A stretch of DNA of 6,696 nt from a virus (taxonomy: Duplodnaviria; Heunggongvirae; Uroviricota; Caudoviricetes): the IMG/VR virus record IMGVR_UViG_2606217117_000014; one strand, 5' to 3'. How positions within the stretch are numbered: the first letter of the stretch is position 1; the number at the start of each line of letters is the position of its first letter. The notes beneath the pieces were generated by a model, which was not told the DNA's origin, did not search any database, and was given only the letters and a program-made list of their open reading frames with translations. Below are positions 365 through 6,696 of this stretch, in pieces. A program made the position numbers and the translations under genes.

Positions 365-739
365 ATGCTCATAGATTTGGTTTTACCTTACCCGCCGACG
401 GTGAACACTTACTGGCGACGCCGTGGCAGCACATATTTTATCTCGGAGGAGGGAAAGCGTTATCGCCGGGCTGTGGCGCTTATTGTTCGCCAGCAGCGGC
501 TGAAATTAAGCCTGTCCGGAAGGCTGGCGATAAAGGTGATTGCAGAGCCACCGGATAAGCGTCGTCGCGACCTGGACAATATCCTGAAAGCACCGCTGGA
601 TGCGCTGACGCATGCGGGAGTGTTAATGGACGATGAGCAGTTTGATGAAATCAATATCGTTCGTGGTCAGCCAGTATCTGGTGGACGTCTGGGGGTGAAG
701 ATTTACCCCATAATGCATGAAGAGCAGGTCAAAAAATGA
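365..739 (+). CDS. rusA: RusA-family Holliday junction resolvase (lambdoid prophage endodeoxyribonuclease)
   Basis: 124 aa. Contains PPDKRRRDLDNILKAPLDALTHAG, matching the recalled RusA catalytic block (DRRRRDLDN...FDALT). N-terminal LPYPPTVNTYW parallels RusA LPWPPSNNRYY. SD-like AGAGGTGA lies 5-6 nt before the ATG. Confidence 0.85.
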   Translation: MLIDLVLPYPPTVNTYWRRRGSTYFISEEGKRYRRAVALIVRQQRLKLSLSGRLAIKVIAEPPDKRRRDLDNILKAPLDALTHAGVLMDDEQFDEINIVRGQPVSGGRLGVKIYPIMHEEQVKK

Positions 740-1557
740 AACTGGAAGATTTACCGAAATACTACTCCCCAAAATCCCCTGGCCTGACCGATGCATCGGC
801 CTCAACGTCAAAAGATGCGCTGAGTATCACTGATGTGATGGCCGCGCAGGGCATGACACAGAATCGGGCTGAGATGGGTTTTTCTGCGTTCCTGGGGAAA
901 ATGGGCATCAGTATGAATGACAGGGTGCGGGCAACAGAATTACTGGCAGATTATGCACTCAGTCGGTGCGATCGTGTGGCGGCGTTGAGAAAACTTCCGG
1001 CAGAAATAAAACCGGTAGTGATGCGCATTATGGCTTCGTACGCTTTTGAGGATTATGCCCGCAGCGCAGCGAGTAAAAAGCAGTGCCCTTGTTGCTATGG
1101 GGAAAAATTTATTGAAAGCATAGTTTTTACAAACAAGGTCCAGTATCCGGATGGTAAGCCGCCGGTATGGGCAAAGTGTACGAAAGGTGTGTATCCGTCT
1201 TACTGGGAAGAATGGAAAAAAGTCAGGGAGGTGGTAAAAGTTGCCTGTCCGGAGTGTGGCGGAAAGGGTGAGGTTTCCACCGCCTGTAAGGATTGCCGTG
1301 GGCGTGGTGTCGCCATTCACCGTGAAGAGTCGGTAAAACGTGGTATGCCTGTTATCAGAGACTGCCAGCGTTGTGGTGGTCGTGGCTATGAAAGACTACC
1401 ATCAACGGAGGCATTTAATGCTATATGCGAGGTGACAAACCAGATAACACGCGCGTCATGGGAAAAAACAGTTAAGAAATTCTATGATGCGCTGGTGACC
1501 CGGTTTGATATTGAAGAAGCATGGGCTGAGCGGCAGTTAAAAAAGGTAACTAGGTAA
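736..1557 (+). CDS. Late-gene antitermination protein Q (QuuQ/Q-like) with DnaJ-type CxxCxGxG zinc-finger repeats
   Basis: 273 aa. Start ATG overlaps the rusA stop (ATGA at 736-739). Lies directly upstream of a lambda-like pR'/tR' pair. N-terminus MKLEDLPKYYSPKSP resembles recalled Qin QuuQ. Three repeats CPECGGKG, CKDCRGRG, CQRCGGRG. Confidence 0.75.
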   Translation: MKLEDLPKYYSPKSPGLTDASASTSKDALSITDVMAAQGMTQNRAEMGFSAFLGKMGISMNDRVRATELLADYALSRCDRVAALRKLPAEIKPVVMRIMASYAFEDYARSAASKKQCPCCYGEKFIESIVFTNKVQYPDGKPPVWAKCTKGVYPSYWEEWKKVREVVKVACPECGGKGEVSTACKDCRGRGVAIHREESVKRGMPVIRDCQRCGGRGYERLPSTEAFNAICEVTNQITRASWEKTVKKFYDALVTRFDIEEAWAERQLKKVTR

Positions 1558-1604: not shown

Positions 1605-1638
1605 GCCTTTTATGCCTGACGTTAGAAGAGTTTCTACA

Positions 1639-1664
1639 ACCCGCCGCCGAGCGGGTTTTTTATT
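1639..1664 (+). terminator. tR'-like intrinsic terminator
   Basis: Stem ACCCGC (1639-1644) pairs with GCGGGT (1651-1656), 6-nt loop, then TTTTTTATT. About 65 nt downstream of the predicted pR' start. Confidence 0.65.
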
Positions 1665-1691
1665 GCGGAATTAATTACGGACCGTTATTAT
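1663..1691 (+). promoter_or_regulatory. Candidate sigma70 promoter for the tRNA genes
   Basis: TTGCGG (1663-1668), 17-nt spacer, TATTAT (1686-1691). Predicted start falls about 7-9 nt before the tRNA 5' end. Motif match only. Confidence 0.3.
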
Positions 1692-1700
1692 TCTGCTCCC

Positions 1701-1776
1701 GGCCCTTTAGCTCAGTGGTGAGAGCGAGCGACTCATAATCGCCAGGTCGCTGGTTCAAATCCAGCAAGGGCCACCA
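1701..1776 (+). tRNA. tRNA-Ile2 (anticodon CAU, lysidine-type; tRNA-Met not excluded), ileZ-like as in Stx phages
   Basis: Hand-folded cloverleaf: acceptor GGCCCTT/AAGGGCC, D stem GCTC/GAGC, anticodon loop CTCATAA, T arm GCTGG-TTCAAAT-CCAGC, discriminator A, encoded CCA. Close to recalled E. coli ileX. Confidence 0.85.
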
Positions 1777-1876
1777 TCACAAACCGCCATTAGCTTATCA
1801 GGAAGAGCAGACGACGCGATAACAGGGTTGTTGGTGCGGGGGCGGGTCCCCGATGGCGGTCCATTATCGGTATTCA

Positions 1877-1950
1877 GCGTTGTTAGCTCAGCCGGACAGA
1901 GCAATTGCCTTCTAAGCAATCGGTCACTGGTTCGAATCCAGTACAGCGCG
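1877..1950 (+). tRNA. tRNA-Arg (anticodon UCU, reads AGA/AGG), argN/argO-like
   Basis: Acceptor GCGTTGT/ACAGCGC (one G-U pair), D stem GCTC/GAGC, anticodon stem ATTGC/GCAAT with loop CTTCTAA, T arm ACTGG-TTCGAAT-CCAGT, discriminator G. No encoded CCA. Confidence 0.8.
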
Positions 1951-2090
1951 CTATATTCATTCTTCCAGATTCCTTCCGGCAGAGCCTTATACTGAAATAT
2001 ACCTGGCTCAGGATATTGTTGAAAATATTATATGTTTGTCAAAAATAAAAGTTCTGTTAAGTATTGATTGAGTGTTTGTTATACGGTCTA

Positions 2091-2417
2091 ATGGTTTTTT
2101 CAGCATTAAATATTTATCATTCATATGGTGTGGGTAGAGTGAATATTGATGAGGCGTCGGGGTGTTTCATCCTTAGGCAGCGTATTGATATAGTCAATGC
2201 AGCACGAGCAAAGGCCTTCAGCCGTTTGACAGTTTTGTTCTGTACTCCTGATCGTCTTTCGGGAAGAGACGTTATTATTCTGAATAGTGATGCTATTCAG
2301 AGGGTTTGCGATGAGTTCATGGTTGCTAATTCAGAATTATTTGCTCTTGTTCAGGAGTACAACAGAATAGCCAGGACCTGTGGTATGGATGAACTTCGGA
2401 TTACTCATCTGGGGTAG
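2091..2417 (+). CDS. Hypothetical protein, ~108 aa from ATG 2091 (117 aa if TTG 2064 is used), unknown function
   Basis: Open frame to TAG 2415-2417. Candidate promoter TTGTCA (2036-2041), 16-17 nt spacer, TAAGTA/AAGTAT (2058-2064) just upstream. No convincing SD. Occupies the position of stx genes in Stx phages. No recognisable motif. Confidence 0.4.
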   Translation: MVFSALNIYHSYGVGRVNIDEASGCFILRQRIDIVNAARAKAFSRLTVLFCTPDRLSGRDVIILNSDAIQRVCDEFMVANSELFALVQEYNRIARTCGMDELRITHLG

Positions 2418-2497
2418 ATACATATCTGGATTATCACTTGTTACGGTAAAAAGTGATTGCTTACTGTTTTTGTGAGTGGCATTGCAGCAGCCGGATA

Positions 2498-2584
2498 ATG
2501 TCAGTGCTGGCTGACGGTGTGCTGGTGGCGGGTGTGGTGGTTGTTGCTTTCCCGTTGCTGAAAAAGAAAACGCCAGACTGTTAG
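2498..2584 (+). CDS. Candidate small hydrophobic peptide, 28 aa (MSVLADGVLVAGVVVVAFPLLKKKTPDC)
   Basis: ATG 2498 to TAG 2582-2584. One predicted transmembrane-like segment followed by KKK. Weak SD (GGA about 5 nt upstream). Could be a chance ORF in GT-rich DNA. Confidence 0.2.
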   Translation: MSVLADGVLVAGVVVVAFPLLKKKTPDC

Positions 2585-2808
2585 CCGGGTATCAGTTAGC
2601 GGGAGAAATTTTTAAATACTTCACAATTCAGGCGGTTGACTGTTGTCTGGTTTGCGGGGAGTTTGTTAAAAGAAACTGGCATGGTGAATCCCCCTGTGCG
2701 GAGGGGCAATCAGCGAGTAGGTATATGGGATAATCGCGGATTCAGGTGCTGGTACTGAATTCACCGGGAGGCACCCGGCACCATGCAATGGCACATAGCG
2801 CCACTCTC

Positions 2809-2838
2809 CAGCCCCTCTCCGGAGGGGCTGTTTATATT
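2809..2838 (+). terminator. Rho-independent terminator, plus-strand orientation
   Basis: 9-bp GC-rich stem CAGCCCCTC (2809-2817) / GAGGGGCTG (2822-2830), 4-nt loop, followed by TTTATATTGATTTT. The reverse-strand flank is not U-rich. Confidence 0.6.
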
Positions 2839-2861
2839 GATTTTGTCAGATGTGAGTAAAC

Positions 2862-2895
2862 TCCTTATGGACTTTGTTGTTTTAGTCCATAAGGA
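2862..2895. repeat. Perfect 12-bp inverted repeat with 10-bp spacer (TCCTTATGGACT-N10-AGTCCATAAGGA)
   Basis: Read directly from the sequence. Overlaps the last about 10 codons and the stop of the minus-strand gene 2865-3200. Confidence 0.75.
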
Positions 2896-3200
2896 CATAT
2901 TTGCAGAGTGCAACGGTTATTAAAGCATTCATTCAATACGTTATCTGTATTTGTAGGACATTCCTGGCTGTTTTTGATTAAATTCCAGAATGTTTTATTG
3001 AATGGTGCTACGTTGTAAATGGTTACAGGTAGCACTTTGTTATTGAGCATGATACCTGTGTGAGTCAGTGTAAATATACTTTCAGGAGGTAAGAAAGCAT
3101 CCGATTGATACCAGATTATTAATTTTATTTTACTCCATATGACTGAAAAAGATATTCCGCATGATGGCTGGATAACTGTATCAATCACAATCCACTTCAT
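2865..3200 (-). CDS. Hypothetical Cys-containing protein, 111 aa, AT-rich moron gene convergent to the late operon
   Basis: Strong SD AAGGAA 6 nt upstream of ATG (plus 3198-3200). A 111-codon open frame in DNA that looks very AT-rich by eye is unlikely by chance. Translation: [18 protein letters not shown]...[10 protein letters not shown]. No recognisable family. Confidence 0.55.
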
Positions 3201-3240
3201 TTAGTTTCCTTGTTTATGTCTTGCTGGTGATGTTCTGAAA

Positions 3241-3267
3241 AGTATAAATGATATTTTTGAATGTAAA
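3241..3267 (-). promoter_or_regulatory. Candidate sigma70 promoter for the minus-strand 111-aa gene
   Basis: Minus strand reads TTTACA (plus 3262-3267), 15-nt spacer, TATACT (plus 3241-3246), about 35 nt upstream of the RBS. Spacer is shorter than optimal. Confidence 0.3.
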
Positions 3268-3460
3268 CCATAGAGCAGAATTATTTTTCTGATGTTGTTT
3301 ATTGTTTATTTAAATGCAGGGTGGTTTATATCTCGTCTTGTAGTTTATCCATGCATATCTGCTTGATGATGAGGTTTTTATTTAAGGTATGGTTTTGTGT
3401 TTTTTCTGTATTACATGTCAGGTATTTTAAAGAATTATTTTTCAGATGGTGGAAAGAACC

Positions 3461-5422
3461 ATGGCATTTAAACACTATGATGTTGTCAGGGCGGCATCGC
3501 CGTCAGACCTTGCGAAACGACTGACACAAAAACTGAAGGAGGGGTGGCAGCCATTTGGCAGTCCGGTGGCCATCACGCCTTATACCCTGATGCAGGCCAT
3601 TGCGGCGGAAGGTGATGTCACCACACCTGTGGTGGTGAAGCCGTCGGATGGAGAAGGCGCAGTTATCAGCACCACCAGCAACCCGGAGTATTACTTTGTT
3701 GTTGCCCTGGCCGGGCAGTCAAACGGTATGGCGTATGGTGAAGGGCTTCCGCTGCCGGAGACATATGACCGTCCGGACCCGCGTATTAAACAGCTGGCGC
3801 GTCGCAGCACTGTCACGCCGGGTGGTGCGTCCTGTAACTACAATGACATTATTCCTGCGGACCACTGCCTGCATGATGTTCAGGATTTGAGTAAGTTTTC
3901 ACACCCGAAAGCCAGCGCAGCTCAGTATGGATGCGTGGGGCAGGGATTACATATCGCGAAGAAATTGTTGCCGTTTATTCCGGCGAATGCCGGTATTCTT
4001 CTGGTTCCGTGCTGCCGTGGTGGTTCTGCATTTTTGGCGGGCGATGAAGGTACCTTCAGCGAATCCACCGGCGCAAGCGAGACCTCGGCACGCTGGGGTG
4101 TTGATAAGCCACTGTACAAGGACCTGCTTACCCGTACTCAGGCCGCACTGAAGGCCAACCCTAAAAATATTCTGCTTGCAGTGGTCTGGATGCAGGGCGA
4201 GTTTGATTTGAAACAGGGTGCATACGCCACTCAGCCGGGGCTGTTTGATTCCATGGTGGAAAAATATCGTTCTGACCTGTCGGAATTCGGAGGTCAGTGT
4301 CTCGGGGGCTCTCCGTCATCGGTTCCCTGGATTTGTGGCGACACGACCTACTACTGGAAGCAGACTTATTCTTCGCAATACGATGCGGTGTATGGTGCAT
4401 ACAAGACGAAATCCGCAAAAAAAATCTTCTTTGTGCCGTTTATGACGGATGAAAACGGGCGAAATGTGGGTACCAACGAGCCGTCAGAAGATCCGGATGT
4501 TGCGGATATTGGGTATTACGGAGGCGGTGGTCGAACGGACGCCAAAACCTGGACGACGGCCGACCGTAAAACGCATTTTGGATCATGGGCACGTCGTGGG
4601 ATTATTTCCGACCGTCTGGCAACGGCGATTCTTGTGCATGCCGGGAGAAACGCTGAATTCATTACCGGAAAACAGCCTGATACGGTGAAGCCCACCGGAC
4701 CTTCCGGTGAAGGTACGGAGAGAGAGCCGGAAGCCCCGGTCAGTAACCGAACCCTGATGAGTCTGCTGGCGTCCGGCGAAGACCTGGCATCACAGGGCTG
4801 GCGCTATTATCACAAACCGGCGAGCGGAGACAATGTTAACAAAAACATTGCTGAAGCGGTGGTCAGTGATGCGGGGGCTACGGGAGGTAAGGCCCTGCAA
4901 CTGAATAAACCGGAAAACCACATCTGGTTTCTGGAGCATGATGCAGCCGGACAGGGAGTGGAGTTACTGAAGAAGGGGGGACGTGTGAGCGTACGGTTTA
5001 AGTTGCCGGGTTCACTGGTGCCGAATCAGTTTGCCCTGGGCATTTACTGGCAGTTGTCGTCCCTGCCGGAGGGAGTGACGCTGGCAGAGGAAGGCAACGA
5101 CATGCTGATGTCCTTCTTTCTGCAGACGGATGCGACGAACCTGAACGCGATGCACCACAAGAAGCCGAATGCGAAGCTGGAAACGTTCGGGGTCTTTGAT
5201 AACGGATGGCACACACTGGCTTTTGAGTTTGCCGGAAACAACAGCATTCAGGTGACGCCGGTACTGGATGAGAAACGGGGGACGCCGTTCACACTGGTGA
5301 AATCTCCGGCATCAGGGGCGGCGGACAAACTGCAACTGACAGGCATATCAAAGGCGGCGACATATACGCTGCTGATTGACAGTGTGAAGGTGGAAGTGAA
5401 CAACGCGGACATCGCGGCATGA
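3461..5422 (+). CDS. nanS: Prophage sialate O-acetylesterase, NanS-p type (N-terminal DUF1737-like region, SASA/SGNH esterase domain, C-terminal extension)
   Basis: 653 aa from ATG 3461, which has SD GGTGGA 7 nt upstream; the ATG at 3446 has no SD. Block VVALAGQSNGMAYGEG carries the GQSN serine motif of the sialate O-acetylesterase family. Size and position match recalled nanS-p genes downstream of stx. Confidence 0.8.
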   Translation: MAFKHYDVVRAASPSDLAKRLTQKLKEGWQPFGSPVAITPYTLMQAIAAEGDVTTPVVVKPSDGEGAVISTTSNPEYYFVVALAGQSNGMAYGEGLPLPETYDRPDPRIKQLARRSTVTPGGASCNYNDIIPADHCLHDVQDLSKFSHPKASAAQYGCVGQGLHIAKKLLPFIPANAGILLVPCCRGGSAFLAGDEGTFSESTGASETSARWGVDKPLYKDLLTRTQAALKANPKNILLAVVWMQGEFDLKQGAYATQPGLFDSMVEKYRSDLSEFGGQCLGGSPSSVPWICGDTTYYWKQTYSSQYDAVYGAYKTKSAKKIFFVPFMTDENGRNVGTNEPSEDPDVADIGYYGGGGRTDAKTWTTADRKTHFGSWARRGIISDRLATAILVHAGRNAEFITGKQPDTVKPTGPSGEGTEREPEAPVSNRTLMSLLASGEDLASQGWRYYHKPASGDNVNKNIAEAVVSDAGATGGKALQLNKPENHIWFLEHDAAGQGVELLKKGGRVSVRFKLPGSLVPNQFALGIYWQLSSLPEGVTLAEEGNDMLMSFFLQTDATNLNAMHHKKPNAKLETFGVFDNGWHTLAFEFAGNNSIQVTPVLDEKRGTPFTLVKSPASGAADKLQLTGISKAATYTLLIDSVKVEVNNADIAA

Positions 5423-5827: not shown

Positions 5828-6696
5828 TGAACCGCCCCGGGTTTCCTGGAGAGTATTTTATCTGTGAACTCAGGCTGCCAGATCATCGTTTCCGATGGAA
5901 GCATAATAAGCTTTTTCTGCTTCTGCCGGAGGAGTATGGCCCAGCCTTTCCAGCAATCGTCGATTGTTATACCAGTCCACCCACGTGAGTGTGGCCAGTT
6001 CCACTTCTGCACGGTTTTTCCAGCTCTTACGGTGTATTACCTCCGCTTTGTAAAGACCATTGATGCTCTCCGCCATCGCGTTGTCATACGAGTCGCCTGT
6101 ACTTCCTGTTGATGCCAGTAATCCGGCTTCCTTAAGCCGCTGTGTGTAGGCCAGCGATACATACTGAGAACCTTTATCACTGTGATGGACCGTGCCGGAC
6201 GGTCGACGGGCCCATAACGCCTGCTCCAGTGCATCCAGCACGAATGTCGTCTCCATGGACGATGAGACCCGCCACCCCACAATGTATCCGGCAAACACAT
6301 CAATGATGAACGCCACATAGACGAAGCCCTGCCATGTGCTGACGTAAGTAAAATCAGCCACCCACAGCTGGTCAGGTCGTTCTGCCACGAACTGACGGTT
6401 TACGCGGTCGCCTGCGGCAACGGCTTTCCGGCTGATGGTCGTACGGACCTTTTTACCCCGGAGAACACCGGCAAGTCCCATAACCGCCATGAGACGTGCC
6501 ACAGTGCATCTGGCCACTCTGATACCTTCCCGTAACAACTGACGCCAGACTTTACGCACACCGTATACCTTGTGATTTTCATCGTATACGCGCTGTATCT
6601 CTTTCTTCAGCCAGTCATCGCGCTGCGCACGGGCACTGCGTTTATCCGGATGATGTCGCTGTTGCTGACAGTGGTAATACGTTGACGGGGCAATAT
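5828..6696 (-). mobile_element. IS3-family insertion sequence (IS629-like), partial; runs off the right edge of the window
   Basis: Terminus TGAACCGCCCCGGGTTTCCTGGAGAG at 5828 matches the recalled IS629/IS3-family terminal inverted repeat. Encloses a DDE transposase OrfB on the minus strand ending 42 bp inside the end. Confidence 0.8.
5870..6696 (-). CDS. IS3-family transposase OrfB (DDE integrase core), N-terminal part outside the window
   Basis: Frame is open from the window edge (hand translation 6560-6696 has no stop) to TGA at plus 5870-5872. Motifs WVADFTYV, HHSDKGSQY, DSYDNAMAES, YKAE are typical DDE transposase blocks. Confidence 0.85.
   Translation of the reverse strand, partial: IAPSTYYHCQQQRHHPDKRSARAQRDDWLKKEIQRVYDENHKVYGVRKVWRQLLREGIRVARCTVARLMAVMGLAGVLRGKKVRTTISRKAVAAGDRVNRQFVAERPDQLWVADFTYVSTWQGFVYVAFIIDVFAGYIVGWRVSSSMETTFVLDALEQALWARRPSGTVHHSDKGSQYVSLAYTQRLKEAGLLASTGSTGDSYDNAMAESINGLYKAEVIHRKSWKNRAEVELATLTWVDWYNNRRLLERLGHTPPAEAEKAYYASIGNDDLAA

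Follow-up and report, generated by a model that had tools for sequence, protein, structure and literature searches.

The window, by which we mean the whole stretch of 6,696 nucleotides analysed, corresponds to the late-regulatory region of an E. coli lambdoid prophage. Its plus strand carries the 3' part of a DUF968 gene (20-352), rusA (365-739), the gene of the antiterminator Q (736..1557; Pfam Antiterm PF03589, E=2e-54), a tR'-like intrinsic terminator recovered by the terminator scan (1638..1657), with analogous annotated features in 933W, and two tRNAs (1701-1776 and 1877-1951) lying between this terminator and two small phage ORFs (2091-2417 and 2453-2584). Further right are a nanS-p-type sialate O-acetylesterase gene with DUF1737, SASA and DUF6645 domains (3461..5422), a DUF1378 gene and the first codons of a DUF826 gene (start at about 5778), which an IS3-family element cuts off after 5829. 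As the sequence-only reading had proposed, one real gene of 111 codons is present on the minus strand at 2865..3200, the sole leftward gene of this rightward array. It lies antisense between Q, the tR'-like terminator and the two tRNAs on one side and nanS-p, its divergent neighbour, and the lysis region on the other. Since the tR'-like terminator is found downstream of Q, the gene sits inside the Q-dependent unit.

This antisense ORF is almost certainly iraL, the known prophage-borne RssB anti-adaptor gene. Three RssB anti-adaptors of E. coli had been described before IraL, whose gene is a paralog of K-12 iraM. The coding sequence starts with ATG, ends with a stop codon at 2865-2867 and includes the C-terminal Cys4/CPYG tail. 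The encoded protein is identical to CFT073 IraL (c1429; WP_000871291.1) at 110 of 111 residues, the single difference being A65 in place of V65; alanine is also the K-12 IraM residue at this position and is present in 12 of 80 IMG/VR loci. The published definition of iraL (PMC4045071) requires the CFT073 coding region to be matched over 100% of its length with no less than 95% nucleotide identity, and the nucleotide comparison gives 3 differences in 336 nt over the full length. Identity to K-12 iraM is 70% at the nucleotide and 63% at the amino acid level. The earlier reading was mistaken in seeing no recognisable motif in the protein, which belongs to the IraM family of anti-adaptors: NCBIfam NF007393 (anti-adapter protein IraM) matches at full length with 162.4 bits against a cutoff of 121, residues 1-110 aligning with profile positions 1-113 of 114, and the crystallised IraM chain 8twd_A (PDB 8TWD) is matched with E=2e-32. 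Homologs in a set of 5.8 billion proteins carry the same name. The NCBIfam and PDB matches and the near identity to the CFT073 protein, together with the genomic context and the fold described below, therefore identify the gene as iraL. The several cysteines already remarked upon number five (Cys 14, 81, 92, 97 and 102).

Other resources describe the gene less well. PHROGs places it at full length in phrog_4407 (244 bits), which is listed as unknown function, RefSeq labels it IraM, and phage vB_EcoS-640R1 annotates it as Anti-adapter protein IraM. Pfam-A scans with E values up to 10 matched neither the window protein nor K-12 IraM; we treated this as a gap of library or version, since precomputed PF11183 is attached to most homologs. 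Because of these gaps, automated or eye-based scans keep flagging iraL as a mystery ORF, and the present assignment is of use for annotation. A 2014 publication already described the gene together with the target of its product, its promoter and the strains that carry it, so that the finding is real but ordinary.

The base composition of the locus deviates strongly from its surroundings. GC content is 34% in the coding sequence and 32% in 2836-3445, against 49.5% for the whole window, 50.6% for positions 1-2000 and 54.7% for nanS-p. Homology to 933W and to phi296, a Traversvirus without iraL, breaks at about 2830, straight after a GC-rich hairpin at 2809-2830, and resumes at about 3458, at the start of nanS-p. 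It follows that iraL, its promoter and the AT-rich upstream DNA form a discrete insertion of about 630 bp. The separate acquisition suspected from AT-richness alone is thus borne out by 32% GC against flanks of about 50-55% and by the boundaries of the insertion in both phages. Discrete insertion and deviant base composition, which are among the marks by which a moron is recognised, are both present, and iraL is a bounded AT-rich moron cassette that spans window positions of about 2830-3457 within the late region of the prophage. The upstream part of the cassette (3268..3457), which reaches the nanS-p start, is present in all 80 iraL-carrying IMG/VR loci with 98% mean identity. We also considered whether iraL occupies the exact stx slot. 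This was rejected: the 933W segment downstream of stxB is homologous to window positions of about 2620-2800, which puts iraL in the next slot downstream of stx.

The same arrangement is found in the strain from which iraL was described. According to its RefSeq annotation, the 'potB genomic island' of CFT073 is an entire lambdoid prophage; its iraL is antisense to the neighbouring genes, with Q and the tRNA genes on one side and a DUF1737 fragment followed by the holin on the other. The window is 99.5% identical to this prophage at the DNA level over 1-1665 and 96.9% identical over 1659-3618. The order Q, tRNAs, iraL on the minus strand, DUF1737/nanS-p and holin is common to the CFT073 potB prophage, E. 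coli MCJCHV-1 and phage vB_EcoS-640R1, and the potB-island-type context that goes with iraL is thereby found here as well. The MCJCHV-1 chromosome is 100% identical over 2780-3445.

Some neighbouring features deserve a short description. The tRNA at 1701-1776 (+) is called tRNA-Met (CAT) by ARAGORN and tRNA-Ile by RefSeq in MCJCHV-1; it is an ileZ-type phage tRNA, as in 933W, and lysidine modification presumably makes it read as Ile. The 108-amino-acid ORF at 2091-2417 (+), flanked by the tRNAs and the post-stx segment, takes the place that corresponds to stx and matches phrog_2873 (unknown function) at full length with 234 bits. It has a GC content of 34-43%, has no match in Pfam, NCBIfam or PADLOC and is without PGAP annotation in the near-identical MCJCHV-1 locus. 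Given its AT-richness and the absence of matches in these three libraries, it is probably another moron. The 43-amino-acid ORF at 2453-2584 (+) is a DUF3927 family protein in RefSeq relatives and matches phrog_1470, 'TciB-like inhibition of cell division or resistance to colicin'.

On the other side of iraL, the nanS-p ORF (3446-5422) is intact in the window, frameshifted in the MCJCHV-1 annotation and reduced to a DUF1737 fragment in CFT073. Most IMG/VR iraL loci have a truncated nanS-p, the first 300 nt being kept in 17 of 80. As homology to the 933W and phi296 genes begins at the ATG at 3461 (MAFKHYD...), position 3446 is probably not the true start. The IS3-family element (5830-6696, minus strand; transposase ORF with rve domain at 5870-6559) is inserted after 5829 and cuts the DUF826 gene after about 17 codons, just upstream of the position of the holin and lysis genes in relatives. 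The late operon of this copy of the prophage may be disrupted by it.

The iraL coding sequence is under purifying selection. Compared with iraM, dN/dS is 0.18 overall, with values of 0.17 for the core and 0.18 for the tail. Among 80 IMG/VR phage contigs there are 13 iraL alleles with 8 synonymous and 2 non-synonymous variants, and no allele carries a stop or a frameshift. The synonymous-biased conservation, whose absence from related prophages would have spoken against a gene, is thus present at both levels of comparison. A chance ORF in AT-rich spacer DNA could be imagined from the PHROGs label of unknown function and the missing match in the Pfam copy used, but we give this reading no weight in view of the full-length match to a curated family, the solved homolog, the published genetics, the synonymous bias and the absence of disrupted alleles in 80 loci. 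As to distribution, about a quarter of the complete E. coli genomes (1428 of 5426) match at least 80% of the length of the locus 2780-3445, with up to 5 matching places per genome. The IraM/IraL family as a whole is small, with 57 clusters at 90% identity. The named source organisms of its members are Escherichia, Cronobacter and Pseudescherichia; further copies, in Shigella and Citrobacter, were found in the genome scan.

The gene has its own promoter, as had been suspected. The published 5'-RACE sequence of CFT073 iraL (PMC4045071) matches the window from 3233 to 3202 on the minus strand at 30 of 32 positions, with 2 mismatches, and none of 200 shuffles gave any match. Transcription therefore starts at 3233 and the candidate promoter (3241..3267, minus strand) was called correctly. 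The 5' UTR is 33 nt long (3201..3233), and within it lies the near-consensus Shine-Dalgarno sequence noted earlier, AAGGAA, which reads directly from 3211 to 3206 and precedes the ATG by 5 nt. The mapped start places the -10 hexamer TATACT (3246 to 3241) at -13 to -8 and the -35 hexamer TTTACA (3267 to 3262) a further 15 nt upstream. Because this spacer is only 15 nt long, the promoter was missed by a sigma-70 consensus scan, which allowed for spacers of 16-18 nt. Both hexamers and the spacer are identical to those of CFT073, from which the promoter area differs at 3 positions, one at -1 relative to the transcription start and two in the 5' UTR (+15 and +30). For the promoter and upstream region the published definition (PMC4045071) sets at least 96% identity and intact -35 and -10 elements; we found 98% identity over 681 nt, a stretch made up of the upstream region, the gene and its 3' hairpins, together with the identical hexamers.

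The intergenic region 3201-3445 has a GC content of 28.6%. A PhoP box, PhoP being the regulator of iraM, was searched for here and rejected, as the one match with 1 mismatch (3296-3312) compares with 1.7 matches expected by chance. The upstream regions of iraL and K-12 iraM do not align.

The promoter varies in natural populations. Among IMG/VR loci L007-L086 the -35 hexamer is changed from TTTACA to TTTATA in 7 loci, a T-to-A change immediately 3' of it (around window 3262-3270) is seen in 34 loci, and an apparent indel near the hexamer shifts the upstream region in 7 loci. One of these variants may be the -35 mutation of iraL2 in JJ1886 (PMC4045071). Since natural copies with -35 changes exist, expression of any given copy is not guaranteed, and the window could hold a silent or redundant iraL, with an intact coding sequence that stays unexpressed or makes no contribution in its host. 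Silencing of the AT-rich promoter by an H-NS-type mechanism, promoter variants or another copy of iraL or iraM in the genome could each bring this about. The point mutation in the -35 element of the second JJ1886 copy (PMC4045071), the -35 variants of the IMG/VR loci, the genomes with up to 5 matching places, the upstream region of 28.6% GC and the suboptimal 15-nt spacer are all in keeping with such a state. We nevertheless consider it improbable for the present copy, as its -35, -10 and spacer are those of the CFT073 promoter, which works in CFT073 and, as a fragment from -100 to the end of the coding sequence, in K-12, and as the coding sequence is under purifying selection. Expression of this particular iraL copy is what we infer.

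At the 3' end two strong hairpins are found, and the terminator and repeat scans show no U-tract after either of them on the iraL strand. The region folds on that strand at -46.5 kcal/mol (z = -6.7). The perfect 12-bp hairpin that the sequence-only reading placed at the 3' end does exist as a 12-bp repeat (2862-2873/2884-2895, minus strand, 10-nt loop); the stem at 2862..2895 covers the last codons and the stop codon of iraL and does not lie downstream of them. With only GUUUAC as its tail the stem is not a canonical terminator, and none was found on the iraL strand. Variants of the stem in the population consist of one A-U to G-U change and two mismatches, without compensatory pairs. The hairpin is possibly a 3' stabiliser of the mRNA or a weak terminator. 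K-12 iraM lacks this hairpin; a canonical terminator is found there as a separate element. The second structure (2809..2830) is a GC-rich hairpin with a stem of 9 bp and, on the plus strand only, a T-rich tail. The terminator scan listed it as a rightward intrinsic terminator convergent with iraL; it marks the left boundary of the cassette and is retained in 79 of 80 IMG/VR loci.

The family structure was solved in 2023, when the crystal structure of IraM with RssB showed three clusters of contacts (PMC10844676). The AlphaFold2 model of the window protein, built from an alignment of 28 family members, has a pLDDT of about 90 over residues 1-78 and shows strands and a helix (69-77), arranged as a PmrD-like antiparallel beta-barrel with a beta-hairpin and a C-terminal helix. 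In Foldseek its best match is 8twd_A (TM 0.90, rmsd 1.3 A), PmrD coming next; the predicted fold of the supposed motif-less protein therefore superposes on crystallised IraM. All five residues of IraM cluster I contacting the N-terminal domain (NTD) of RssB (I4, I6, W22, K26 and I42) are identical here, while the clusters contacting the CTD and the linker carry the substitutions T13S, L75I, H63N and I64V. Conserved NTD contacts beside substituted CTD and linker contacts fit the NTD-only interaction of IraL reported from two-hybrid assays (PMC4045071).

The fold is also common to PmrD, which binds PmrA, and the gene is phage-borne with a Cys4 tail to which no role has been assigned. A connector with the IraM fold might on these grounds have taken on a new target in place of RssB, either a different response regulator or some phage process, for instance toxin activity, superinfection exclusion or anti-defence. 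We regard this as very improbable, since RssB binding and sigma-S stabilisation have been demonstrated for a protein 99% identical to that of the window, the contact residues for the RssB NTD are conserved, identity to PmrD is only 14-20% and no PADLOC model is matched. The toxicity or phage-exclusion role put forward from the sequence alone likewise finds no support: no PADLOC defence model was matched at E<=0.01 and no toxin-like family was matched in Pfam or NCBIfam, and a defence or toxin role was rejected on this basis. An anti-adaptor directed at RssB is thus the reading we retain.

The C-terminal tail (residues 81-111; window 2868-2960, minus strand) has the motif C-P-x(9-10)-C-x(4-5)-C-x4-C-P-Y-G, which was also located at L092 5001-5330 and L093 5001-5366. 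In 28 family members, down to 31% identity, C97, C102, P103 and Y104 show no variation, and conservation is at least 90% for C81, P82 and C92; Cys14 of the core is not conserved across the family. The tail was removed for IraM crystallography and was described as less conserved and flexible, and no mention of cysteines or zinc in the IraL/IraM tail was found in the key papers searched. AlphaFold2 gives it a pLDDT below 50, which is uninformative about metal binding. As a hypothesis only, the Cys4 tail could be a zinc-binding or redox-sensitive module acting on the stability or activity of the anti-adaptor.

Function and expression of iraL are documented in the literature. In CFT073, IraL co-purifies with RssB and interacts with the NTD only in two-hybrid assays (Hryckowian et al., mBio 2014, PMC4045071). 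[quoted passage not shown] The iraL copy in the resident prophage of CFT073 is active in ordinary growth, as seen by 5'-RACE, sigma-S immunoblots and complementation from the native promoter (PMC4045071). By RNA-seq, iraL (c1429) mRNA in CFT073 increases by 1.6 log2 upon a shift from 23 to 37 C (PMC12890032), and its levels are higher in CFT073 lacking Fur. The earlier idea of expression in the lysogen is therefore broadly right, a near-identical copy being expressed from a resident prophage (PMC4045071, PMC12890032).

From these elements a mode of action can be proposed. While the prophage is repressed, iraL would be transcribed leftward from its own sigma-70-type promoter (start at 3233). 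The PmrD-like beta-barrel core (residues 1-78) would bind the receiver (N-terminal) domain of the adaptor RssB, and RssB bound in this way would be unable to hand sigma-S (RpoS) to ClpXP. With RssB blocked, RpoS would be stabilised even in exponential growth. For the allele of the window, RssB binding and sigma-S stabilisation are predicted from its sequence. In this scheme iraL would act as a lysogenic-conversion ('moron') gene which pre-arms the general stress response of the host. The rightward terminator at 2809-2830 probably stops non-antiterminated transcription in the lysogen and shields iraL there from convergent transcription. After induction, Q-antiterminated late transcription may read through this terminator, collide with iraL and override it; a collision of Q-dependent late transcription with iraL expression is a plausible inference.

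Two more far-reaching readings, which we put forward as speculative and rather doubtful, are a Cys4 tail working as a zinc or redox module that controls the anti-adaptor and a constant antisense placement that couples RpoS stabilisation to the state of the prophage. In the second, the gene would be on in the lysogen, where the 2809-2830 terminator shields it, and would be switched off by antiterminated transcription after induction. If such coupling holds true, raised RpoS might damp induction, so that the cassette would serve both phage and host. The wider relevance of the locus lies in the rewiring of the RpoS stress response by prophages in extraintestinal pathogens.

The closest known system is IraL of CFT073, which shares with the window the promoter hexamers, the sequence at the mapped transcription start, the 3' hairpins, the position and the orientation. 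Besides residue 65 and the three substitutions at -1 and in the 5' UTR, two differences are seen: the neighbouring nanS-p is truncated in CFT073 and of full length in the window, and an IS200 is present between Q and the tRNAs in CFT073, whereas the window has the IS3-family element further to the right.

K-12 IraM (b1160; PDB 8TWD with RssB) shares the fold of beta-barrel plus helix, the contacts with the RssB NTD, the Cys4/CPYG tail and the class of activity, being an RssB anti-adaptor that stabilises sigma-S. It differs in its unrelated upstream region and in having a canonical terminator of its own. Expression of iraM is induced by PhoPQ under low Mg2+, and the different flanks are consistent with a different regulation of the two paralogs. 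At the protein level, IraM contacts both RssB domains and IraL the NTD only in two-hybrid assays (PMC4045071), and IraL has a C-terminal extension of 4 residues (QQSP) relative to K-12 IraM. With regard to location, the MG1655 iraM region (L002 15414-16004; K-12 1211413-1212003) adjoins ycgX (DUF1398, the family of the prophage gene ydfO), and iraM itself is found beyond the icdC pseudogene, about 270 bp past the right end annotated for the cryptic prophage e14, so that the statement that iraM is on e14 is only approximately true.

PmrD (PDB 4HN7, 2JSO and 2RQX) is also a small protein with this unusual beta-barrel that binds the receiver domain of a response regulator. Its target is PmrA and not RssB, identity is 14-20%, and the solved chains of 81-88 residues are too short for a Cys4 C-terminal tail; IraL and PmrD share a fold class and not a family. 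With respect to genetic organisation the comparison is with bor of lambda and 933W, likewise a small gene on the opposite strand of the late region which has its own promoter, is expressed from the repressed prophage (the 933W annotation reads 'expressed in lysogenic state') and alters the phenotype of the host. The bor gene follows Rz, while iraL is placed between the post-stx terminator segment and nanS-p, and the bor product is an outer-membrane lipoprotein, whereas IraL is a cytoplasmic regulator of proteolysis.
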